Shown here: one piece after another, positions 3,726 to 62,843 of the stretch
Layout of the letters: every line of letters starts with the position of its first letter
Position numbering within the stretch: the first letter of the stretch is position 1
Source: an uncultured Alphaproteobacteria bacterium
GTDB taxonomy: Bacteria > Pseudomonadota > Alphaproteobacteria > RF32 > CAG-239
Assembly (NCBI GenBank): GCA_944390315.1
Contig: CALXPO010000024.1
Span: forward strand, 778-64,777
Direction of reading: 5' to 3'
Length of the DNA: 64,000 nucleotides
Notes under the pieces: generated by a model
What the model was told of the DNA's origin: nothing
The model's input: the letters and a program-made list of their open reading frames with translations, nothing else
Databases searched by the model: none
Translations under genes and position numbers: made by a program

Positions 3726-5063
3726 ATGAGTCCCGTATACACTTACGTCGTCAATTTATTTTTTGTTTTTTTACTTGTCTTTGCTAACGCTTTTTTTGTA
3801 GTTTCCGAGTTTGCCATCGTCAAAATTCGACGTACAAAATTGGAAGAATTGGCTCATTTTGGAAATAAAAAAGCCAAAATAGCTCTGAAAATTACGGAAA
3901 ATCTTAACACCTATCTCAGCGCCATTCAATTGGGAATCACTTTGGCTTCTCTGGGACTGGGCTGGATTGGTGAACCTGCCGTTTCAAAACTTCTTGAAGA
4001 TTTGTTCAGAGATTTTTTTGCCGACAATAAAGTATTGTTACACTCAATCAGCTTCAGCGTGGCTTTTGGATTGATTACCCTGCTCCACGTTGTCTTGGGA
4101 GAATTGGTACCAAAATCTTTGGCTATTCAAAATACCGAAAATTTTGCCCTGATTATCGCCAAACCTCTTTATGTCTTTAAACATATTTTTGCTCCCTTTA
4201 TTTGGGTTTTTGATCAAGTAACCGCCGGTATCTTGCATCTTATGGGAATTCAACAATCAAACGAAACCGACGATGCTCACTCTGAAGAAGAAATTAAACT
4301 GATTATCGATGCTTCGCAAAAAGGCGGCGTCATTGATGATACAGAAGGTGAAATTATTCAAAACGCCATTGATTTTTCAGAAATTTTTGCTCACGAAATT
4401 ATGATTCCACGGCAAGACATGAAATGCCTTTATCAAAATTACACTTTTGAACAAGCCATGGATTTTGTTAAAAAGAATAATCATACACGTTTTCCTTTGT
4501 GCAACAAAGATAAAGATCATGTTATCGGAATGTTGCATATTCGTGATTTGTTGGAATATGAAGGTGACGGAAAAGATAAAGATGTTCTGACAAAATTAGC
4601 ACGCAAAATTTTATTTGTTCCTGAAAACAAATCCATTTCCGAAATTTTGCACCAAATGATGTCGCGTCATATCCATTTGGCTATTGTGGTCGACGAATAT
4701 GGCGGTACCGCCGGTTTGCTCTCTATGGAAGATATTTTGGAAGAACTTGTCGGAGATATTATGGACGAACATGACGACGCAACAAATGAGCCTATTAAAA
4801 AAATTAATGAAAACATGTGCGAATTTGACGGCGTAGTTTTGGTTGAAGATGCTTTTGACAGTATGGATTTGCCTGAATGCGAACACGAAGAAAGCACAAT
4901 GGGCGGTTATGTCTTCGGTTTGCTCGGACGCTTACCAAAAGTCGGCGATAAGGTCGAAGATGTTTACTGCGAATATGAAGTTATCGGTGTGGATAATATG
5001 CGCATCACTCGCATTAGAGCCAAAATAAAACCTTTTAGGACGGACAATGATGAAGAACAGTAA
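3726..5063 (+). CDS. tlyC: Hemolysin-family / CNNM-type transporter-associated protein (DUF21 TM domain + CBS pair + CorC_HlyC), TlyC-like.
   Basis: N-terminal 4-TM DUF21-like region, central CBS-like region, and a C-terminal CorC/HlyC transporter-associated motif. Confidence 0.8.
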   Translation: MSPVYTYVVNLFFVFLLVFANAFFVVSEFAIVKIRRTKLEELAHFGNKKAKIALKITENLNTYLSAIQLGITLASLGLGWIGEPAVSKLLEDLFRDFFADNKVLLHSISFSVAFGLITLLHVVLGELVPKSLAIQNTENFALIIAKPLYVFKHIFAPFIWVFDQVTAGILHLMGIQQSNETDDAHSEEEIKLIIDASQKGGVIDDTEGEIIQNAIDFSEIFAHEIMIPRQDMKCLYQNYTFEQAMDFVKKNNHTRFPLCNKDKDHVIGMLHIRDLLEYEGDGKDKDVLTKLARKILFVPENKSISEILHQMMSRHIHLAIVVDEYGGTAGLLSMEDILEELVGDIMDEHDDATNEPIKKINENMCEFDGVVLVEDAFDSMDLPECEHEESTMGGYVFGLLGRLPKVGDKVEDVYCEYEVIGVDNMRITRIRAKIKPFRTDNDEEQ

Positions 5064-5421
5064 TACCGTGTCTTTATTGGTCGGTCTGTTTATGCTTTCT
5101 TATTCCGATACGTATGCCGGTTGCTTAGATTTGCCTCAACCTCAGGCAAGGCAGGCTTTACAAATTTTAAGCACGCAAGATATGATTGTCGAATATTGCG
5201 AAAAATGTTCCGACAATATTCATCAAATTATTGGCATACGTTCAACAGGCATTGTTTGCGATAATAAGAATATGTGTCGTATTTTGATAAACGGTCAAGA
5301 AGCGGATATGTCCCGTCTCTTTGCTCAAAATGCCGATGGTAAAGATGAAAATATTGCATATGCCATACATTGTCCCGATGCCCTGCTTTATAATCCTCGT
5401 TTTTTAGATTTTAACAAATAA
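5047..5421 (+). CDS. Hypothetical small secreted cysteine-rich protein (signal peptide, possible lipobox YAGC).
   Basis: N-terminal hydrophobic signal-like segment. Eight Cys in 124 aa. Overlaps the tlyC stop by 17 nt. Confidence 0.4.
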   Translation: MMKNSNTVSLLVGLFMLSYSDTYAGCLDLPQPQARQALQILSTQDMIVEYCEKCSDNIHQIIGIRSTGIVCDNKNMCRILINGQEADMSRLFAQNADGKDENIAYAIHCPDALLYNPRFLDFNK

Positions 5422-5427
5422 AAACTG

Positions 5428-6219
5428 TTGCTTACTGTTTTTAATGATTATATAACAGTTATGAGAATTAACATCAAAACGGAAAACATCATGGAAAAAA
5501 TTATCAATTATATTGCTAAAGGTCAGGGTTTAGGCATCAAATATTTACTTCTTTTTGCCTTAATCGTAACGATTATTTTTAGCATTAACATCAAGTTAAT
5601 CGGCGAAGATATTATGGTGCCCAAGGCTCAAGAAATTGCTAATCAATTTTTACCTGTCAAAATTGAGAACGGCGAAATTGTAGAACCTATCAACATCGTA
5701 AAAAAGCATACAATCATCGTCGGTGAGGGTGAAAGCGCTCAATCTTTCGATATCCTTATGGATACAACAACGTATAATCTTGATCCGACGGAATTAAAAG
5801 ATGGCATCTATATTACACGCTCCGCTGTTTATACCGTTAATGACGGTGAAGCAAGAGTCCATAAATTAGAAGATTCTTTAGACCTGCCGAGCGGCGACTA
5901 TACTGAATTGTTTACCTCATTTTTGAATTGGGGAATTTTTATTTTCGGCATTTTTGCATTCTTAGGTTTGGCGCTGTTCTATTTTATAGCTGTTATTTTT
6001 TATGCGACCTGCTCTTACCTCATTTCGCTGATTATGCGTAAGAAATATAACTACGATTTAAGAATGAGATTAAGCACATTAGCTTTCATCGTGACATATA
6101 TTGTCTTTTCTATTCTCGAGCTATTCGGCTTTGGCAGCAACCTTATCTTTTTCTTAGCTGTTTTAGCTTTGCAAAGTTTAGTTATGAAAGACATTCCGAC
6201 CCAAGAAGTAAATCAATAA
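5428..6219 (+). CDS. Hypothetical integral membrane protein (DUF1189-like architecture: N-terminal TM, soluble domain, C-terminal TM bundle).
   Basis: ORF with clear TM segments at both ends. Followed by a rho-independent terminator. Confidence 0.5.
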   Translation: MLTVFNDYITVMRINIKTENIMEKIINYIAKGQGLGIKYLLLFALIVTIIFSINIKLIGEDIMVPKAQEIANQFLPVKIENGEIVEPINIVKKHTIIVGEGESAQSFDILMDTTTYNLDPTELKDGIYITRSAVYTVNDGEARVHKLEDSLDLPSGDYTELFTSFLNWGIFIFGIFAFLGLALFYFIAVIFYATCSYLISLIMRKKYNYDLRMRLSTLAFIVTYIVFSILELFGFGSNLIFFLAVLALQSLVMKDIPTQEVNQ

Positions 6220-6237
6220 TCTTGAAAGTATGATTTC

Positions 6238-6264
6238 GGCCTCGCTTCGGCGAGGCTTTTTTTG
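6238..6264 (+). terminator. Rho-independent terminator (GGCCTCGC-TTCG-GCGAGGC + T-tract).
   Basis: GC-rich stem-loop followed by TTTTTTTG, read directly. Confidence 0.55.
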
Positions 6265-6345
6265 TCTACTATCCATAACTATTCTACGGTAGATAATGCC
6301 AAATTATATTTACATTATTTATTTTTTATGTTACATTAGACAAAA

Positions 6346-7344
6346 TTGTTCGAAAGGGTTAATATGAAAAAAAATTCGCTATGGCAAAAAATAAAAGATA
6401 AATTTTGTCACAAATTTATCAAATTGGCTATACTTTCACTTCCCATACTCGGAACAAACGCCGGCGAAAATACTTCACCGCTACCTTCCTCGGATATTGC
6501 CAAGAATAAAGCCTTAACAGAAAAGAGCGTCTCTCCTTCTCGGCAAAATAACTTTGTCCCCCTCAATTCCGATGAAATCATTGCTCAAAAACTTCTTTCC
6601 GAAAAACAAAATATTATCGGAAATTTTAATTTGAACGACAGAGAATTTTCTGCCGAAGATTTGTCACGAATACAACAATGTCCCCTAAACGAACAAATCA
6701 TTAAAACTGCAAAAAAAAATGCCAAACGAGGCGTCCCCGGCTCCGGACAACAAACATACTGTCTCGGCGCCGTTAAGGAATTTTATAGCGCCAACGGAAT
6801 AATTATCGACGCTCAACGTTTTGCATACCGCGCCGTTGATAGTTTGCAGACAAATTCAAACTTTACGGAAATAAACGTTAACATATCAGACTTTGCAAGC
6901 ATGCCTGACGGCGCTCTGATGGCATGGGAAAAAGGCACGACACGCTATGGACATATTGCCATGAAAATCGGCAATAGAGAATATTGCGACTATGTTTATA
7001 ACCTTCATACCAATAATCGCCGCGGAAGAACAGGACAACGTTATGGCAAAGCCCATGTTTTTCTGTTGAAACAAATGCCTCTTACCGAAGATTTTACTCG
7101 TAAATTGATTGCGGAAGGACGGCTGAAAGATGATGTCAGAAAAAGAATTGAAGCTAAAATCAAAACAGATGATATGTATGCCAGATTGAAATATCACCCG
7201 CTAAAAACTTTTGATGTTGCAGATTCTGCTTTATTTCAAAGAAATTCGGCGTCCGTCGAAAGTCCAACTTCGCATTCCCAAAAATATGCGGGAAACCAAT
7301 TTGATATAAACATGATTAAAAAAACAAAAGAGAAATCACGTTAA
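6346..7344 (+). CDS. Secreted hypothetical protein with a putative CHAP/NlpC-P60-like Cys...His motif pair (YCLGAV ... YGHIAMKIG). Candidate amidase or peptidase effector. The start may be Met7 at 6364.
   Basis: Signal-peptide-like N-terminus. Cys and His motifs resemble the CHAP catalytic dyad. Low GC. Confidence 0.45.
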   Translation: MFERVNMKKNSLWQKIKDKFCHKFIKLAILSLPILGTNAGENTSPLPSSDIAKNKALTEKSVSPSRQNNFVPLNSDEIIAQKLLSEKQNIIGNFNLNDREFSAEDLSRIQQCPLNEQIIKTAKKNAKRGVPGSGQQTYCLGAVKEFYSANGIIIDAQRFAYRAVDSLQTNSNFTEINVNISDFASMPDGALMAWEKGTTRYGHIAMKIGNREYCDYVYNLHTNNRRGRTGQRYGKAHVFLLKQMPLTEDFTRKLIAEGRLKDDVRKRIEAKIKTDDMYARLKYHPLKTFDVADSALFQRNSASVESPTSHSQKYAGNQFDINMIKKTKEKSR

Positions 7345-7436
7345 CTTTTGTCAATTGATTATTTGCATAAAAAAAACTGGATTTTAATTTTGAAAGTGAT
7401 ATACTAGACAGAAATAGACAATTAAGGCAAAGTAAA

Positions 7437-8780
7437 ATGGGAAAATTTTCAGCAGATAAAGATTATGCACCGCGCGTCTCAATGCATAGGGATTATGAAC
7501 AGCACAAAAAACGCGGCGAAGCCTTGAGTGCTCGAAAAAAACAAATTCTCAGTAAAAACAAACAGTCTGTCGATAAAAATCGTGTTACCGAACAAACCAA
7601 CATCAGTCAACCAACGCCAAGTAACGTCCCCTCTCTGACCGATGAACAAATTTATTCCAAATTAGAAGAATTAAGTGCAAAATTCAGAGCTACAAACGGT
7701 CAAACCGAAGAAGCCGAATTAAGAAAATTTGCCGAACAATACCACCTCAATTTACGCGTTACGTCCGCTGTTTCAAAAACAGACAAAAGTGCCATTGCTC
7801 GTATGGTCTTTAATGGTGGTGTTGAAAAACCAATGATCGGTTACTCTCCAAAATTCGCCGATATTGCAAATTATCCTTTTAAATATTCCGTAAATCCTAA
7901 AAATCCAGAGGATTACAATTTGGATGATTCTACAATTTGGCAGGCTATGGCCGAAGAACCAAGACTCTTTGAAATGAAAGATAAAATAAAATCGGCTCTC
8001 GCTAAAGCCGGCGTTCCAAAAGAGATTCTTCCCGATATGAATCTAAATGATTTTAAGTACCTCATGTTTAATTATTGCGGTGCTCAGAAAGGTCTCGGTT
8101 TTACGAAGCTGTTTCAGGCAAAAGATGAGAATGGAACACCTCTTACCTATAAAGACAGAAACGGAAGAGATGTTCCTATATGCACCAGCGCAAAACAAGA
8201 AAATGTAATGCGTTTTATGCGCGAAAATCCGCAATTTAAGACCATGCTTATGAAAATGCCCGGCATTAACAGAGCTTATGTCGATACCTTAACCAAAAAA
8301 ATGTCAGAAACGGGGCTGACTGATATGTCCAAAGAACTCGAGCGCCACCCGGAATGGGCAAACCAGCCCGCAATTGACGTACATCATATCATCAATATCA
8401 AAGATTGTCGTTTGCTGGAAGAACAAGGAAAATCTTATGCTGCCGTTAATAATTACGAAAATATGTGTATTGTCAGCAATGGTACTCTGCTCGATGCCGT
8501 TAGTCGCGCCAGAAAAATGTCTTCGGAAAACAAAAATACTTCCGTTCATGCCGGTATTCATACTGCCGACGTTGTCTTCAGCGATAAGACAGATAAAGGT
8601 GATATTAAGCGGACAATGGCACGCCTTGAACCCCAACCCGGAGTTAGATGCATGCTCGGATTTAATGACGATATGATTATTATGGATTCAAATTATCAAC
8701 AGCAAACTAATACTCAATCTAACAATAACAATTCGCAAATGTTTTTCATAAAGCAAAATAACGGAGCCGCAAGAGCATGA
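7437..8780 (+). CDS. Putative polymorphic-toxin-like protein. The C-terminal region carries an HNH/AHH-like nuclease motif (DVHHIINIKD ... NNYEN ... HAGIH).
   Basis: HH dyad, downstream Asn, then an HxxxH-like His, consistent with HNH-superfamily toxin domains. ATGA overlap with a downstream SUKH immunity gene. No match to a housekeeping family. Confidence 0.5.
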   Translation: MGKFSADKDYAPRVSMHRDYEQHKKRGEALSARKKQILSKNKQSVDKNRVTEQTNISQPTPSNVPSLTDEQIYSKLEELSAKFRATNGQTEEAELRKFAEQYHLNLRVTSAVSKTDKSAIARMVFNGGVEKPMIGYSPKFADIANYPFKYSVNPKNPEDYNLDDSTIWQAMAEEPRLFEMKDKIKSALAKAGVPKEILPDMNLNDFKYLMFNYCGAQKGLGFTKLFQAKDENGTPLTYKDRNGRDVPICTSAKQENVMRFMRENPQFKTMLMKMPGINRAYVDTLTKKMSETGLTDMSKELERHPEWANQPAIDVHHIINIKDCRLLEEQGKSYAAVNNYENMCIVSNGTLLDAVSRARKMSSENKNTSVHAGIHTADVVFSDKTDKGDIKRTMARLEPQPGVRCMLGFNDDMIIMDSNYQQQTNTQSNNNNSQMFFIKQNNGAARA

Positions 8781-9193
8781 CTATTCAGGAATTAATTGAT
8801 TACATCAAACAAAATGACGAGGTCGGATGCAATAAAGCCACTTCTGATGTAAAAATCGCCATCGGCGTTCTTAAATTAAAAGAAGCCGGTCTTCCCGAAC
8901 CCAGTACCGATTATTATAAGCTGTTGCGACAATTCAACGGTCTTTCAAATAACGGTGGCTATGTTATGGGAATTAATCCTGAAAGTACTTTTTTTCCAAA
9001 TCTTATTGACTATAATCTAAAAGAAAAAGAAAATCTTAATACGGGTGAGATTATTCTTGGCTATGATGATGATTATTGGCTAATTTATAACCAAAATAAT
9101 AAAAATTATAAAATTGTGGATCCTGATGACGGTTCCGAAGAAGGGACATCAAACAACTTAGCCGATATTATTCCTTACGTACTCCATATATGA
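8777..9193 (+). CDS. SMI1/KNR4 (SUKH-1) family protein, putative immunity protein for the upstream toxin.
   Basis: About 138 aa with YYKLLRQFNGLSNNGG...ILGYDDDYWLIY motifs characteristic of SUKH/SMI1-KNR4. Translationally coupled to the toxin gene. Confidence 0.6.
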   Translation: MTIQELIDYIKQNDEVGCNKATSDVKIAIGVLKLKEAGLPEPSTDYYKLLRQFNGLSNNGGYVMGINPESTFFPNLIDYNLKEKENLNTGEIILGYDDDYWLIYNQNNKNYKIVDPDDGSEEGTSNNLADIIPYVLHI

Positions 9194-9200
9194 AGGATAT

Positions 9201-9392
9201 TTGATTATGATGGAATATATAAAACGAAAACTTTGCAGATTAGAAGAAAAAAACGATTGGCGTAAAAAAATCCCGTTTCCGCATTATTATGAAGAAAACG
9301 GAAAAATCGTAAAAGAAACGGCTGACGGGAAAAAATATGTTGTTACTTTAGACGATGCTTATAATGAAGTGATTGTGGAGCAAATAAAATGA
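9201..9392 (+). CDS. Small 63-aa protein, putative epsilon-like antitoxin. ATGA overlap with the zeta-family gene.
   Basis: Position and size immediately upstream of the zeta-toxin-family gene, overlapping it. No sequence motif. Confidence 0.35.
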   Translation: MIMMEYIKRKLCRLEEKNDWRKKIPFPHYYEENGKIVKETADGKKYVVTLDDAYNEVIVEQIK

Positions 9393-10243
9393 GAATGAAA
9401 AAACCTTGGATGGTTGTGATTGCCGGACCAAACGGCGCAGGAAAATCGACTTTTTATGATTTGGTCATTAAAGACGATCCTTTAATGAAAAATGCTCCTT
9501 TTATCAATTTGGATAATATTGCAAGAGATATATCCGAACCTCAGGATAATCCAAACAACAACATGATTAGTGCCGGAAAAATTGCCTATCAAGAAGTGGA
9601 AAAACACATTATCGGTAAAAAAAGTTTTGTATATGAAACGACGTCGTCGGGAAAAGTACACTTGCGCTTTATGGATGAAGCCAAAAAAAGAGGTTTTAAA
9701 GTTGCAACAATATTTATAGGTCTTTCGACACCCATGTTATCTTATTTGCGTGTTAAAGACAGAGTAACAAAAGGCGGACATGATGTCCCGACAAAAGATT
9801 TAAGACGTCGATATCCTAAAATAATGAAAAACTTTCCCGATATGCTAAAACGCAGCGATATCGCCGCTGTTTTTGATAATTCGGGCGATAAACCTTTCAA
9901 ACTTATTTTTCTCATGGACGATAAGGCTTTTCGCATTTTTTATAAATATCCTAAATGGCTTGAGGAATCTATCAAAGAACGCAAAACCCGCAAAGACATG
10001 ATTATGGTAAGAAATTCTCCTTCTGTTCATCAACTCAGCGATGAACAATTGCGCGAAATTTCAAATCAAGCCCTTAGCGCCGTAGCCGGTCTTAATAACG
10101 AAGCTATTCCGAATATTGTCGGTTCGGCCGATACCATCCCCGAAGATGCACGTGAACTTCCTAATCTACTTGAAGAAAATCAGGAAAAAAGCCGTAATGC
10201 AGCTCAGTGGATAAAAAGAATTAAAGAAGAAAATCAAAAATAG
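9389..10243 (+). CDS. Zeta-toxin family P-loop kinase (UNAG-kinase-like) with a C-terminal extension.
   Basis: N-terminal Walker A (VIAGPNGAGKSTF) followed by an INLDNIARD-type motif, as in zeta/PezT-family proteins. Low-GC island context. Confidence 0.65.
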   Translation: MRMKKPWMVVIAGPNGAGKSTFYDLVIKDDPLMKNAPFINLDNIARDISEPQDNPNNNMISAGKIAYQEVEKHIIGKKSFVYETTSSGKVHLRFMDEAKKRGFKVATIFIGLSTPMLSYLRVKDRVTKGGHDVPTKDLRRRYPKIMKNFPDMLKRSDIAAVFDNSGDKPFKLIFLMDDKAFRIFYKYPKWLEESIKERKTRKDMIMVRNSPSVHQLSDEQLREISNQALSAVAGLNNEAIPNIVGSADTIPEDARELPNLLEENQEKSRNAAQWIKRIKEENQK

Positions 10244-10750
10244 ACATTTCAGCCAAACCGAGGGGTGCTGTACAACCAGTAACTGGTGACTTTACTCACT
10301 CAGTTGAATTTGTAAATTGTCAATCTGATTTCTATACAACCTGCAAATTTGTGACTTGACTAACCTTTCTGACAAGACACCGTATTGTTTTCTCAGCGCA
10401 TTGAACTTCAGCCTCAAATAAATACCCCATTTTGTGAGAACCAACTTGTAGAAATAACTTAAGATTATTCTTTCATTTTTTGTCGGTCTGCTCAATATAT
10501 GGCATAATTGCTGTTTTTTACAATATGATATGCATGATTGACTTAATGTGTATGAGATTTAACTTTCCGACGAAGCGGTTAATATGAATATATGTAACTT
10601 ATTTATCTTTTTGCTTTTAAGCAATAAACTTAAATTAAGTTGGTAGAATTTATCAATAACTGAACAAGCTATATCTTTTATCTTTCAGCATAAAACTTGG
10701 GTACATAATTTGAGTGCATAACTTAGAATTTTGAAATTGCTTACAAAATT

Positions 10751-11374
10751 CTAGTAATTCCCATCATAATTATCACTCGATGGAGGATATTCATTATATT
10801 CGCTATATCCGTTTTGTTGTTCTCTCAAGCGTTGTTGCTGCTCATAATAACGCTGTTGACGACTTCTGGCTTCCTGCTCTGCCGCGGCTTCATAAATTGC
10901 GGTTATAATTGTATCACGAAATTCACGGGGATGGGCAATATCTCGGATAACCATACTACTTTCATCGTTTCCGACTTGAACAATGGCATCACCTGCTCCA
11001 AACAATCTCTGAATTAAACTTTGGACTATCTGCACATCGTTTATTTTTGCCAACGGAATATCTTTTTCTTTTATATTAATAATACCCCTGCGTACGTAAA
11101 CACGCTGATTGGTCACGGCATAGATTTTTAATTTATTATCAATTCTGCGATATATGTACGGGATAAACAAAATACCACCGATAAACGTTAAAAGACCTGC
11201 CACGGAATAAATATGTCCCAGCACATTAAAATGCTCTCCTTTACCGACACCGCTCCATGCTGCTAACATCATCAATATCCCGATAGACATTAATAAGGTA
11301 GGAATAACAAAAACTTTATAACTAAAATGCGCCTCGATTTTTACATATTCGTTTGGACGTAGTGCCAATGTCAT
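10751..11374 (-). CDS. Membrane protein with a bacterial PH domain (bPH_2/YdbS-like) and a Q/Y-rich C-terminal tail.
   Basis: Two N-terminal TM helices followed by a PH-like domain pattern. Low-complexity C-terminus (YEQQQRLREQQNGY...). Confidence 0.55.
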   Translation of the reverse strand: MTLALRPNEYVKIEAHFSYKVFVIPTLLMSIGILMMLAAWSGVGKGEHFNVLGHIYSVAGLLTFIGGILFIPYIYRRIDNKLKIYAVTNQRVYVRRGIINIKEKDIPLAKINDVQIVQSLIQRLFGAGDAIVQVGNDESSMVIRDIAHPREFRDTIITAIYEAAAEQEARSRQQRYYEQQQRLREQQNGYSEYNEYPPSSDNYDGNY

Positions 11375-11519
11375 TTTGCAGGACTCCTTTATGTCTTTTT
11401 GTTTGCGATTATAATTTAATTTTTTCAGAAAGACAATACGGATATTTTAATTGTAAATTAATAAAAGCAAGATTACTCTGGTATAGAGATTATTATAACT
11501 ACGATGAAAGGAGAATATT

Positions 11520-12680
11520 ATGACAACAAAACGTTTTATTTTAAACGAGACCAGTTACCACGGACAAGGAGCCATTTCGGCTATTGTTGATGAAGTCAAG
11601 ACACGAGGTTTTCATAAAGCTCTGATTGTGACTGATGCCGGTTTGGTAAAGTTCGGAGTTGTCAAAAAAGTTACTGATTTGCTTGATGCTGCCGGATTAA
11701 AATATGAAATTTTTGACGGCGTAAAGGCCAATCCGAGTGTCAATGTAGTTAAAAGCGGCGTTGAGGCTTTTAAAAAGGCCGGAGCTGATTATATGATTGC
11801 CATCGGCGGTGGTTCACCACAAGATACGGCAAAAGGAATCGGCATTATTATCAATAATCCGGAATTTGCCGATGTTGTTTCCTTGGAAGGCGTTGCTCCG
11901 ACCAAACATAAAAGCGTACCGGTCATTGCCGTTGCCACAACTGCCGGAACTGCCGCAGAAACAACTATCAACTATGTTATTACCGATGAAGAGAAAAGAC
12001 GCAAATTTGTTTGTGTCGACCCTCATGATATTCCTGTTGTCGCCGTTGTCGATCCCGACATGATGGCCTCTATGCCCAAAGGTTTGACTGCAGCTACCGG
12101 AATGGACGCCCTAACCCATGCCATTGAAGGTTATACGACCCTAGCTGCTTGGGAATTAGCCGATACCCTCAATCTTAAAGCCATTGAAATTATTTCCCGC
12201 TCCCTGAGAAAATCTGTTGCCGGTGATGCCAAAGCCAGAGAAGATATGGCTCTTGGTCAGTATGTAACCGGTATGGCTTTTTCAAACGTCGGCTTGGGTG
12301 TTGTTCATGGTATGGCTCACCCTTTAAGCGCTTTTTATGATACGCCTCACGGGGTTGCAAATGCCGTACTTTTGCCTTACGTTATGGAATTTAATGCACC
12401 TTATACCGGTGAAAAATTCCGTGAAATCGCTCGAGCCATGGGAGTTAAAAATGTTGATAATATGTCACAAGAAGAATATCGTCAGGCAGCTATCAACGCC
12501 GTACGACAATTATCAAAAGATGTAAATATTCCTCAAACCCTAAAAGAAATCGGCGTTAAAGAAGAAGATTTGGATGCTTTGGCAGAAGCAGCCATGGCTG
12601 ATGTCTGCACCGGCGGCAATCCGCGCCCCTGCACCAAAGAACTGGTCTTAGAAGTTTATAAGACTGCTTTCGGTAAATAA
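11520..12680 (+). CDS. fucO: Iron-containing alcohol dehydrogenase (lactaldehyde reductase FucO-like).
   Basis: Near full-length similarity to group III Fe-ADH: GGGSPQDTAKG, metal-binding His motifs, and a FucO-like N-terminus MTTKRFILNETSYHGQGA. Confidence 0.8.
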   Translation: MTTKRFILNETSYHGQGAISAIVDEVKTRGFHKALIVTDAGLVKFGVVKKVTDLLDAAGLKYEIFDGVKANPSVNVVKSGVEAFKKAGADYMIAIGGGSPQDTAKGIGIIINNPEFADVVSLEGVAPTKHKSVPVIAVATTAGTAAETTINYVITDEEKRRKFVCVDPHDIPVVAVVDPDMMASMPKGLTAATGMDALTHAIEGYTTLAAWELADTLNLKAIEIISRSLRKSVAGDAKAREDMALGQYVTGMAFSNVGLGVVHGMAHPLSAFYDTPHGVANAVLLPYVMEFNAPYTGEKFREIARAMGVKNVDNMSQEEYRQAAINAVRQLSKDVNIPQTLKEIGVKEEDLDALAEAAMADVCTGGNPRPCTKELVLEVYKTAFGK

Positions 12681-56364: not shown

Positions 56365-57987
56365 ATGGTCGCTAAATCAGTCAAGAAAAAGCCCTCCCAC
56401 AAAAATTTATCTTTAGAAACAAGAATTATTACAACTTTTGCTCTTATCGAATTTTTTAAAACCGATGCCAAAAATATTAGTGGAAATGATTTGCAAGAAA
56501 TCCTTGATAAAATTAATCAGCTAACTCAGCAAGCCTATGATAATGACGATATGCAAGCCTTTGATATTCTTCGTGAGCATAATCTTGACGGCATTAGCAA
56601 TATTAGTGAACTTAAAAGCAAAATCCACCGCAATCGAGTCATAAATATGTACAAACAACTCGGCTACTTCGGATTATCTCAAGGTACTACCAAAGAATAC
56701 CAAATGTCATCCATTGAAACTTTAGCAACCATGATGTATGTTGCTAATGTAAAAAATGCCGATGAAATCGCAGAAAAACTTGTTACTAAAACTTTAACCG
56801 ATGAGGAAGCCGAGCTCTTACAAGCAAATATTTCCGGAGGATTGGGAAATCTTAAAAAATGCCTTATTAAAGACTTTGAAAGATATAAATATAAAAATCA
56901 AGCCAATCCTATAATCTCAGAAATAGCTAAAGATATTGAAGAGTATGTTTTTGATGAAAATAAAAAAATCCAAGTATCTTATAAAGTAAAAGATTCCAAA
57001 AAACCTTTTCGAAAAAAATTACGCGAAAATTTTAATACTTCCTCTAAACCTGAATTTCTCAAACTTATCGGTACTATGCTTACAGAAGGCAAAAATGCGG
57101 CTCAAGCAAGTTCTCGTGCTTCAAATTATAACCAATTTTGCCAGATTTTATCTAATCAATATCCTCAAAAAGATATTAATAAACTTGTGGACAATGCTCT
57201 CGGAATATCAATATCAGAAGCCGATAAAGAAAAAGCTGAACAACTCCGAATCGACGCTTACAGAAAAAAATGCGAAAATCTTTATTTCAAAACCGTGGCC
57301 GGAATGCTCTCACAAAAATATGAATATAATCAAACTCATAAAATTCAAACCGACTATGATGTCTACTTAAAAATTATAGATTCTCGCTATATAAAGGATT
57401 TGTGTGACGGTAAAAACAATGTTTATATGCTAGCTTTTCAGGATCCTGACTATCAACAACAATACGAAAATATGGCTGCTGAAAAAAAACTTAATAAAGA
57501 ATTCAGAGATGACACAGCCGAAAAACAACTGATTTCTGTTCATCATAATACCGTGACCATAGGATCTGCATACGATTTTTGCAGTAAATTTTTTCCTACC
57601 TTTGACGAGGAACAAAAAATGCAAAAATGCACCGAGTTGGCAAATATTTTCGGAAATTTCACCTATGTTATAGGACAAGATGTACACCAATCCCTTGAAC
57701 CTCAAGGTACAATCGAAATCGGCGCTACTCCTAAGTCTATGCTCATGGCTACCAACATTGACCCTCAGGCCTTAAAAAATATATCACCTGCATTACCAAA
57801 GTACATGCAAGAAGGATTAAAACAACGTTTTAAATTCAACAATAATGATATCAATAAAAGAAGAGTATATGAATATATGCAACTTCCCGAAGCCAAAGAT
57901 ATTACTTTCTTACGGCAAAATGTTATTAAAGATAAACAACATGTTTCTGCCATGCAAAAATTCACTCGTTATAATAAAGAATATTAA
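56365..57987 (+). CDS. Hypothetical 540-aa orphan protein in a low-GC island. No signal peptide. Candidate effector.
   Basis: Long uninterrupted ORF with a plausible RBS. GC is markedly below flanking core genes. Bidirectional terminator at 58090-58126. Confidence 0.5.
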   Translation: MVAKSVKKKPSHKNLSLETRIITTFALIEFFKTDAKNISGNDLQEILDKINQLTQQAYDNDDMQAFDILREHNLDGISNISELKSKIHRNRVINMYKQLGYFGLSQGTTKEYQMSSIETLATMMYVANVKNADEIAEKLVTKTLTDEEAELLQANISGGLGNLKKCLIKDFERYKYKNQANPIISEIAKDIEEYVFDENKKIQVSYKVKDSKKPFRKKLRENFNTSSKPEFLKLIGTMLTEGKNAAQASSRASNYNQFCQILSNQYPQKDINKLVDNALGISISEADKEKAEQLRIDAYRKKCENLYFKTVAGMLSQKYEYNQTHKIQTDYDVYLKIIDSRYIKDLCDGKNNVYMLAFQDPDYQQQYENMAAEKKLNKEFRDDTAEKQLISVHHNTVTIGSAYDFCSKFFPTFDEEQKMQKCTELANIFGNFTYVIGQDVHQSLEPQGTIEIGATPKSMLMATNIDPQALKNISPALPKYMQEGLKQRFKFNNNDINKRRVYEYMQLPEAKDITFLRQNVIKDKQHVSAMQKFTRYNKEY

Positions 57988-62084: not shown

Positions 62085-62843
62085 TCAAATGCTTTTTATG
62101 TTCTCGTCCAGGGCTTTAACCGGATTGAGCTGTTTTCCCAATTTAATATGCCAAAACAGGTGATAATTTTTCTTAAAATAATCATAAGCTGTTTTACCTT
62201 GACAGTCTTTTAGAGTTTTATCGGCACCAAAAGCCAAAAGTTTTTTGATATTAGCCGCACTTTTGCCCATGTTGGCCGCTGCTATTAACGCCGTTATACC
62301 TTCATAATTTGTTGCATTAACGTCGGGACAAATTTTTTTAATATCATCCAGCAAAACCGGTCGATGATAAAAAGTGGCAGCTATTGTCAGCAAATTTGAA
62401 CCATCATTTAAGCAAATTTTTGACACATCGCTCCTACTTAGCAATTCTCTGACAACCGGTAACGAATTGCGACGAGCTATGGCTGCAATCAACGGATTTT
62501 TCATACTGTTATTTTCAGCATTTAAATGAGCTCCGGCTGCAATTAATTCTTTTATAACTGCCAGAGAACGTTTCTGATAAACCGCTACAATTAAAGGTGT
62601 TGCGCCAAATAAGCCGATTTGATTGACATCAGCGCCCTCATCTAACAATTGTTTTACCACTGAAGCTCGCAAAAAATGTAAATTTTTAAGCGCACAATGC
62701 AAAGCCGCTGTCTTATTTTTCTCTTTTAGCAAGGCATGAGCGGCCAATTCATCCATCACAAACGTTAGCATGAGTCCTAATAAAAAGGTGATTCCAAATA
62801 AAATTACATAAAACATTTTTGCCCCATAAAATATAGTTGCCAA
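62085..62843 (-). CDS. Ankyrin-repeat protein with an N-terminal TM anchor.
   Basis: At least four ANK repeats (G.TPL..A...L..GA..N). Confidence 0.8.
   Translation of the reverse strand: MATIFYGAKMFYVILFGITFLLGLMLTFVMDELAAHALLKEKNKTAALHCALKNLHFLRASVVKQLLDEGADVNQIGLFGATPLIVAVYQKRSLAVIKELIAAGAHLNAENNSMKNPLIAAIARRNSLPVVRELLSRSDVSKICLNDGSNLLTIAATFYHRPVLLDDIKKICPDVNATNYEGITALIAAANMGKSAANIKKLLAFGADKTLKDCQGKTAYDYFKKNYHLFWHIKLGKQLNPVKALDENIKSI

Follow-up and report, generated by a model that had tools for sequence, protein, structure and literature searches.

The window analyzed here, a 64-kb stretch (64,000 nucleotides) from an uncultured alphaproteobacterium, contains a pair of overlapping genes that probably constitutes a two-gene nuclease/inhibitor (toxin/immunity) module. 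The first, here called the toxin gene (positions 7437..8780, + strand), is an ATG-start open reading frame (ORF) for a 447-aa two-domain nuclease-like protein, and the second, the immunity gene (8777..9193, + strand), is an ATG-start ORF for an acidic protein of 138 aa that has a SUKH fold and is of the YrhA type. The genes overlap, they are conserved as a pair among relatives, the catalytic motif of the larger protein is conserved, its partner has the SUKH fold, and the two proteins are similar to Escherichia coli YhhZ and YrhA, respectively.

The toxin stop codon TGA and the immunity start codon ATG share the sequence ATGA (8777..8780, + strand), an arrangement that indicates translational coupling and that is also found in 11 of 28 related loci and in E. 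coli yhhZ/yrhA. A GGAG sequence lies 10–13 nt 5′ of the immunity ATG. The 447-aa protein carries the motifs DVHHI (residues 314–318), NNYEN (338–342) and HAGIH (371–375), and the 138-aa protein carries FNGLSNNGG and GYDDDYWLIY. A preliminary description of this DNA had reported the two ORFs, the ATGA overlap and all of these motifs, and they are present as it described them.

The C-terminal nuclease domain

Residues 297–425 (8325..8711, + strand) form an HNH/AHH-like domain that can be placed in the His-Me finger/HNH superfamily by its catalytic set and the predicted ββα order on which that set lies. An HH dyad (H316-H317; 8382..8387, + strand) ends a predicted strand at residues 311–317 and is invariant in all 27 orthologs and in all 40 segments of alignment A6, which comprises divergent C-terminal superfamily segments 13–47% identical to that of the window. 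N338 and N342 of the NNYEN motif (8448..8462, + strand) stand just before a second predicted strand (343–350); both are invariant in the 27 orthologs, and the N338 column is at least 90% conserved in the superfamily. The third element is H371-x3-H375 of HAGIH (8547..8561, + strand), on a predicted helix at residues 370–374; its histidines are putative metal ligands, and both are invariant in A6 and present in every ortholog except one (L010). The HH dyad and these two histidines are the only invariant columns of A6, with one Asn at 90% or more, and the residues invariant across the 27 orthologs are H316, H317, N320, K322, D323, N338, N342 and C344. The AlphaFold2 (AF2) model of the 447-aa protein, which has a predicted local distance difference test score (pLDDT) of 80.7 and a predicted template modeling score (pTM) of 0.75, places the two strands and the helix in the order expected for a His-Me finger. 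The helix directly follows strand 2 in the more distant orthologs (NMCFIVRHPQHDAMH), and the subfamily of the window has an insertion of about 22 residues there. In the AHH, LHH and WHH families the HH dyad ends strand 1, its first His is a metal ligand and its second activates water, and two helix histidines are further metal ligands (PMC3113570); the catalytic set of the 447-aa protein's C-terminus corresponds to this description.

The Pfam AHH model scores 22.0 bits with the whole 447-aa protein and 22.9 bits with residues 302–420 alone, on either side of its gathering threshold of 22.3 bits. Weak AHH matches occur in 8 of 20 family members and in 4 of the 40 superfamily segments; the other weak matches that recur among these segments, HNH_2 (5) and HNH (2), are likewise to His-Me finger families, and single segments match DUF2380, an AI2M-like HNH and a few unrelated one-offs. 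The AHH family has been described as largely restricted to polymorphic toxins (PMC3482391). The earlier claim of an HNH/AHH-like C-terminus is supported, with a borderline AHH score, by the invariant HH and HxxxH residues and the YhhZ similarity described below.

In the related locus L010 (L010:6001-7326) a deletion takes the second His of HxxxH and about 16 residues after it (…SIHGSTKRTMVRL…). This may be an inactivated copy that still has its SUKH gene.

The partner protein and the link to E. coli YhhZ/YrhA

The 138-aa protein has the SUKH fold, and here the predicted structure settles what sub-threshold sequence models left in doubt. Its Pfam matches, SUKH_6 (E 0.028) and SMI1_KNR4 (E 0.14), are below the gathering thresholds, and among 15 partner orthologs SUKH_6 is matched by 6, SMI1_KNR4 by 5 and SUKH_5 by 2 (best E values 0.001–0.03). 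The AF2 model, built from a 45-sequence alignment, has a pLDDT of 95.7, and its first Foldseek match in the PDB is 3d5p, a member of the SMI1/KNR4 family (E 3e-5, TM score 0.66), followed by 2prv, Bacillus subtilis YobK (E 1.5e-4, TM score 0.71). Next come 2icg, yeast Knr4 and 2pag and, farther down the list, Syd and FBXO3. By entry name the top 18 PDB matches are all SUKH-type except 2icg and 2pag, which we take to be SUKH-type proteins as well. The protein is a single SUKH domain, with no helix-turn-helix, ribbon-helix-helix or AbrB match in Pfam, NCBIfam or Foldseek.

Its closest family in sequence is YrhA rather than SUKH-1. The NCBIfam YrhA model NF038335 gives it 46.2 bits (E 4e-12; cut-off 55 bits), the partners of relatives score 43.0, 47.1, 54.2 and 56.4 bits, the last of these over the cut-off, and E. 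coli YrhA itself scores 125.5 bits; one partner ortholog is named ‘YrhA family protein’ by NCBI. The preliminary description had assigned the protein to SUKH-1 (SMI1/KNR4), of which the fold stands, the YrhA type being the better description of the protein. Partners in this toxin family are 134–139 aa long and uniformly acidic (isoelectric point, pI, 4.2–5.2; 4.3 for that of the window).

The YrhA match led us to the E. coli genes yhhZ and yrhA, which overlap by 4 nt. YhhZ, annotated as ‘putative endonuclease YhhZ’, has an Hcp/TssD domain (T6SS_HCP and TIGR03344 matches; T6SS, type VI secretion system) and a weak HNH match. When compared by hhalign, profile A6 aligns with YhhZ residues 312–360 with a probability of 94% (E 1.4e-7) and the common pattern VHH...N.FENL...PYH; only this broad profile gave a clear match, that of the close-family profile A2 being weak (E 0.058). 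Intact E. coli YrhA (164 aa) aligns with the immunity profile over 118 columns (hhalign 80%, E 1.4e-5). Given these hhalign matches and the YrhA family links, the nuclease and immunity domains of the window are of a known kind. Of 5426 complete E. coli genomes, 3790 contain a stretch comprising the 3′ end of yhhZ together with yrhA (loci L034:5864-8310 and L045:665-2334). In strain K-12 yrhA is split by IS1E, and in several genomes the RefSeq name of YhhZ is ‘type VI secretion system tube protein TssD’, despite a C-terminal extension of about 240 residues with an HNH-type motif. We found nothing functional on YrhA in the literature.

The N-terminal region of the large protein

Residues 1–65 (7437..7631, + strand) form a basic (pI 10.1) N-terminal region modeled mostly at low confidence (pLDDT <50 at residues 1–19 and 42–64), with one helix predicted at residues 20–40. 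At its extreme N-terminus the motif MGKFS..KDYA.RVSMHRD.EQHKKRG is kept in relatives of more than 60% identity. It is followed by a novel domain of about 230 aa (residues 66–296; 7632..8324, + strand; pLDDT ~90–97) that has no PDB relative by sequence or fold search. The whole-chain pTM of 0.75 suggests that this domain and the nuclease domain pack together. At the other end of the protein, residues 426–447 and the stop codon (8712..8780, + strand) correspond to a variable, poorly conserved Q/N-rich tail that is predicted to be disordered (pLDDT <50 at residues 427–447).

Residues 1–296 match nothing in Pfam, NCBIfam, PADLOC or PHROGs, and the 447-aa protein has no hydrophobic segment (maximum 19-residue Kyte-Doolittle average 0.41). 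It contains no signal peptide and none of the RHS, PAAR, VgrG, Hcp, LXG/WXG or FHA/TPS trafficking domains, in agreement with the preliminary description, which had seen no RHS, PAAR, LXG or signal peptide. Recognizable trafficking domains are likewise absent from 10 long remote relatives (820–1050 aa), which have additional N-terminal or internal sequence, and from 80 further members scanned.

A search of 1.84 billion representatives with the family profile returned 138 proteins, each representing a cluster at 50% identity. Wherever enough sequence follows, all 138 have the same HH...HxxxH domain after the N-terminal domain, sometimes with a linker or insertion between the two; in about 120 further representatives with the N-terminal domain, HH...N...HxxxH comes after it where the sequence is long enough. 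Judged by these sequences, the N-terminal domain is obligately joined to this nuclease domain and is not a shuffled trafficking module.

Conservation and inheritance of the pair

The 28 related loci come from species-representative genomes and extend down to 27% identity. In all 28 the toxin and partner genes adjoin each other, share a strand and keep their order, and such adjacency at that depth means that the pairing is not due to chance. Gap or overlap is small in the 26 loci in which both gene ends could be placed, and it is among these that the 11 with the same 4-nt overlap are found. The pair had been described as translationally coupled, and in these 28 loci, where the genes mostly overlap, it behaves as an obligate, coupled pair like those of nuclease toxin/immunity systems.

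Beyond these loci the pair is kept in three of four more distant lineages with readable downstream DNA. A SUKH gene lies downstream in the remote loci L035-37, L040 and L043-44 (hmmsearch 1e-9 to 4e-41; hhalign 98%). The fourth lineage, P0166, whose 815-aa protein stands for 83 sequences clustered at 90% identity (L041:8001-10448 and L042:2038-4485), keeps HH and HxxxH and has a long Lys-rich C-terminal extension. Its gene is followed 89 nt past the stop codon by Sua5, so that the site reads PepM17 / X / Sua5, where other lineages carry the SUKH partner.

Relatives with more similar toxins also have more similar partners (r = 0.89 between the pairwise identities), to which shared phylogeny contributes. 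The close relatives L003-L010 and L012 each represent a different species. Their toxin and partner are 59–68% identical to those of the window, and the flanking genes for a CNNM transporter, an iron-containing alcohol dehydrogenase (Fe-ADH) and a bPH protein are 81–91% identical. The pair thus diverges faster than its flanking genes, which is the pattern expected of conflict genes. Its position is nonetheless fixed: in closer relatives it lies between the CNNM/DUF1189/332-aa protein genes and the bPH/Fe-ADH genes, and in three remote lineages, with proteins of 594, 815 and 1032 aa, the gene lies between peptidase M29/M17 and Sua5. Two family paralogs (L030, 484 aa; P0177, 437 aa) occur on one 829-kb contig, JAISVX010000003.1. 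Overall, the pair is chromosomal, vertically kept and fast-evolving, and gut and rumen Alphaproteobacteria carry it in several paralogous lineages. A mobile-element origin is unsupported by searches of IMG/VR and, with the remote member P0178, of INPHARED and PLSDB.

Three side observations concern these relatives. The metagenome-assembled genome (MAG) to which contig JAISVX010000003.1 belongs is labeled ‘Lactobacillaceae bacterium’ (as deposited), the sole non-alphaproteobacterial label among the loci. In the metagenomic protein P0058 (587 aa) the toxin and immunity proteins are read as a single ORF, and in P0051 (398 aa, also metagenomic) the first ~262 toxin residues are joined straight to the immunity domain, without the nuclease domain. 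The latter two are either natural fusion and deletion variants or artefacts of assembly or frameshifting at the ATGA junction.

Neighboring genes and chromosomal setting

Downstream of the pair, a 63-aa ORF without a family match (9201-9392) begins 7 nt past the immunity gene and overlaps by 4 nt a 284-aa ORF (9389-10243) for a zeta-toxin-like P-loop protein (PF06414, E 3.6e-10, 40.1 bits). These two look like a second, epsilon/zeta-like toxin-antitoxin (TA) pair in the same operon as the nuclease pair; of the relatives, only the close ones L003-L010 and L012 have the zeta-like pair together with the nuclease pair.

Directly upstream of the toxin gene lies the gene for a 332-aa orphan protein (6346-7344), which is syntenic in relatives at 47–49% identity and has no match in Pfam, NCBIfam, PADLOC or PHROGs. 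By eye its Cys...His pattern (TYCLGAVK ... YGHIAMK) is reminiscent of NlpC/P60-type hydrolases. The region between this gene and the toxin gene (7345-7436) contains no GTTCN7GTTC box, the alphaproteobacterial LexA site, and an SOS-regulated bacteriocin was rejected on this ground; the ORFs also include no lysis gene. A mild compositional dip surrounds the toxin genes although the locus is syntenic: G+C is ~0.37 at 4000-12000 of the window and 0.40–0.46 over most of the next 30 kb, with the immunity gene lowest (0.34).

The annotated window is ordinary core chromosome, with genes for the CNNM transporter, Fe-ADH, a sigma factor, LpxC, MraZ/RsmH/penicillin-binding protein (PBP), Mla transport, a RecN-like protein, GltX, MreB, Ddl, AsmA, IleS, TyrS and AnmK. 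No secretion-system, phage or transposon genes were seen in it (the Pfam annotation covers the window except 40.4-46.4 kb). A six-frame hidden Markov model scan of the 64 kb found one toxin gene and one immunity gene and no orphan cassettes. Among the housekeeping genes lie those for a 540-aa orphan protein (56365-57987), without a Pfam match, and an ankyrin-repeat protein (62085-62843), neither of which matches the toxin or immunity profiles.

A protein identical to the 447-aa protein is encoded in MAG GCA_949286285.1 (contig CASEBZ010000028) and is also found in NCBI, ENA and Logan assemblies. The relatives are MAGs of uncultured Alphaproteobacteria, several of them labeled ‘Azospirillum sp.’, and the names of their isolates and contigs suggest human gut, mouse gut and rumen as sources.

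Proposed function and alternatives

We suggest that the 447-aa protein is one integrated enzyme, made up of the basic N-terminus, the novel domain and a C-terminal metal-dependent nuclease of the HNH type. If it works like colicin-type and AHH/LHH/WHH nucleases, it would bind a divalent metal through H316 and the H371-x3-H375 helix and use H317 to activate a water molecule for cleavage of the DNA backbone, while the hairpin would be braced by N338 and N342. The overlapping immunity gene would be co-translated with the toxin gene, and its acidic SUKH/YrhA-type product may bind the nuclease 1:1 and block its DNA-binding or active site, thereby protecting the producer. A module of this kind would be expected to show nuclease activity, toxicity and inhibition by binding, and may also involve export: the novel N-terminal domain stands where YhhZ has Hcp and is a possible delivery part. 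Because of the toxin-then-immunity gene order, the relationship to YhhZ and the fast evolution of the pair, we lean toward an exported weapon over a purely intracellular TA or defense role, and tentatively propose an antibacterial weapon that would leave the cell. More speculatively, the N-terminal domain might be a new self-contained module for delivery or target recognition in Hcp's place, which would make these proteins a new class of stand-alone, non-polymorphic antibacterial nucleases of gut Alphaproteobacteria that need no recognized secretion system; or the pairs might have been domesticated as a lineage-specific, vertically inherited cellular nuclease/regulator system.

Several observations weigh against this toxin/immunity reading. 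Neither a secretion system nor a signal turned up in the related loci whose gene tables were looked up. A fixed syntenic chromosomal position across species is atypical for toxin/immunity cassettes, and no relatives were found in IMG/VR viral contigs, nor any of the remote member P0178 in INPHARED phages or PLSDB plasmids. The AHH, SUKH and YrhA scores of the window's own proteins are at or below curated cut-offs. No significant match came from PDB sequence and profile searches with the toxin, the profiles A2, A5 and A6 or the immunity profile A3, the only HNH match being LtrA (E 2.8, non-significant). Most awkward is the P0166 lineage, which has no SUKH homolog in its 18-kb (L041) and 12-kb (L042) loci and is the strongest internal evidence against obligate self-toxicity.

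Because the loci are fixed, a zeta-like pair is adjacent and neither a signal nor a secretion context is seen, two other readings stay in play. In the first, which we consider possible if rather doubtful, the pair is an intracellular TA or abortive-infection module whose SUKH protein would act as a labile or displaceable antitoxin, stress or phage freeing the nuclease to degrade DNA. A protein that lacks a signal peptide and trafficking domains, has no secretion genes nearby and is encoded by a chromosomal, vertically kept pair directly upstream of a zeta-toxin-like TA pair in seemingly one operon, would suit such a module, as would the pTM of 0.75, which suggests a compact two-domain enzyme and not beads on a string. 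The gene order, however, is toxin then inhibitor, the partner has no DNA-binding antitoxin domain, no PADLOC defense model matches either protein, and the phage, plasmid and viral collections searched hold no relatives. In addition, a domain of the T6SS tube protein Hcp is present in YhhZ/YrhA, the one named relative that was compared, and SUKH proteins have been described as immunity proteins of secreted toxins (PMC3113570).

The second, a non-toxin role, is unlikely: a lineage-specific cellular nuclease, acting for example in DNA repair, uptake or degradation, would be regulated by its SUKH-fold partner. That the pair evolves much faster than the flanking housekeeping genes speaks against this, as does a partner of the YrhA immunity type that is almost always translationally coupled, and the detectable relatives of the nuclease domain, AHH and YhhZ, are toxin domains. 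Such a nuclease would nevertheless account for vertical inheritance at fixed sites beside housekeeping genes in at least two paralogous lineages, for the family having been retained where genomes are small (members lie on contigs of ~1.79 Mb) and for the catalytic residues of P0166 without an adjacent SUKH gene.

The preliminary description had called the pair polymorphic-toxin-like. A classic polymorphic toxin is a secreted protein with a conserved N-terminal trafficking region, a recombining C-terminal tip and matching immunity cassettes. An HNH-type domain at the C-terminus with a SUKH gene after it is indeed a hallmark neighborhood of such toxins (PMC3113570, PMC3482391), and the C-terminal domain alone reaches the Pfam AHH threshold. 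But there is no tip swapping among the 138 cluster representatives, no RHS, PAAR, VgrG, Hcp, LXG, FHA or signal peptide even in the scanned 820–1050-aa relatives, and no orphan toxin or immunity cassette in the window, and the locus is syntenic core chromosome. On the defining features tested, the classic polymorphic-toxin reading is largely refuted, and we consider it highly improbable.

The preliminary description also raised the idea that an intracellular symbiont directs the protein at its host and protects itself with the second gene. This is scarcely credible, since the source and its relatives are MAGs with labels that point for the relatives to gut, rumen and similar samples, the window has a full free-living envelope and division set (LpxC, MraZ, PBP, Mla, MreB) and nothing that indicates an intracellular symbiont, the 447-aa protein has no eukaryote-like domain or known effector signal, and nothing specific speaks for the idea, the ankyrin-repeat gene lying elsewhere in the window.

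Significance

The HNH and SUKH pairing and a named E. coli relative, YhhZ/YrhA, are known already. What is new is the occurrence of this known nuclease-immunity domain pair in a sizeable unrecognized superfamily that has a novel, obligatory N-terminal domain and whose genomics are non-polymorphic and vertical. If our interpretation is correct, it adds to the nuclease-toxin/SUKH-immunity systems a large uncharacterized branch that no Pfam model covers and that comprises 138 or more clusters at 50% identity; its hosts are little-known Alphaproteobacteria of gut and rumen, uncultured and small in genome. The branch departs from the usual rules in having no trafficking domain, no tip swapping, a fixed chromosomal position and several paralogous lineages, and it raises the question of how a YhhZ-type DNase works with Hcp replaced by a novel domain, which is itself a new object for structural and functional study. 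It would also connect an immunity role with E. coli YrhA, which ~70% of the complete genomes of that species contain.

Comparison with known systems

The combination of HNH and SUKH is textbook. Among polymorphic toxins, Tox-AHH (PF14412) with Imm-SUKH is similar to the pair of the window in the HH that ends strand 1, the conserved Asn, the two helix histidines and the SUKH gene next to it, and AHH is the best-scoring Pfam model. The Tox-AHH signature is [AG]HH, N, H, H and Y (PMC3482391). The orthologs differ from it in having V, I or M in front of HH, and A or G occurs there in only 2 of the 40 superfamily segments; no conserved Tyr follows the second His, scores are only at threshold, and neither trafficking domains nor polymorphism is seen. 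A recently described divergent HNH toxin, Tox-REHH (bioRxiv 10.64898/2026.09.22.753552), belongs to a different family (STox_30, Imm22).

In outline the 447-aa protein is also like colicins E7 and E9 and the S-type pyocins, with a flexible N-terminus, a central domain or domains, a C-terminal HH...N...HxxxH DNase and an immunity gene directly downstream. The acidic partner and the lack of a dedicated secretion machine are likewise shared with nuclease colicins and S-type pyocins. There is, however, no significant sequence or fold match (faint Col-Pyo_DNase matches in 3 of 80 remote members, none for the 447-aa protein), the partner is a SUKH protein where theirs has the Im four-helix fold, and the pair is chromosomal and conserved across species where colicins and pyocins are plasmid-borne or strain-variable.

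Bacillus subtilis YobK is the immunity protein of YobL, an RNase of the LXG/type VII secretion system kind found in Gram-positives. The structure of YobK (2prv) resembles that of the 138-aa protein, and YobL is unrelated to the 447-aa protein. Type II antitoxins have a DNA-binding domain, are usually encoded upstream and autoregulate their operon; the pair of the window differs from them in that the toxin gene comes first and the partner has no DNA-binding domain. Neither protein has a match in PADLOC or PHROGs, and we therefore do not file the pair as a known defense system or phage gene.

According to two reviews (PMC6730261, PMC6099711), the experimentally studied Hcp-ET1/ETi1 pair of Shiga toxin-producing E. 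coli consists of Hcp fused to an HNH-DNase, a T6SS-delivered antibacterial toxin, and its cognate immunity protein. By its architecture as described in reviews, Hcp-ET1 can be likened to YhhZ (b3442)/YrhA (b3443). The pair of the window differs from YhhZ/YrhA at the N-terminus of the large protein, which has a novel ~230-aa domain after a basic tail and no T6SS_HCP or TIGR03344 match, in its context, no T6SS genes having been seen in the annotated window, and in the size of the small protein (134–139 aa for the partners, 164 aa for YrhA). It has in common with YhhZ/YrhA a homologous nuclease domain, a partner in or beside the YrhA family, the order of the two genes and their 4-nt overlap.

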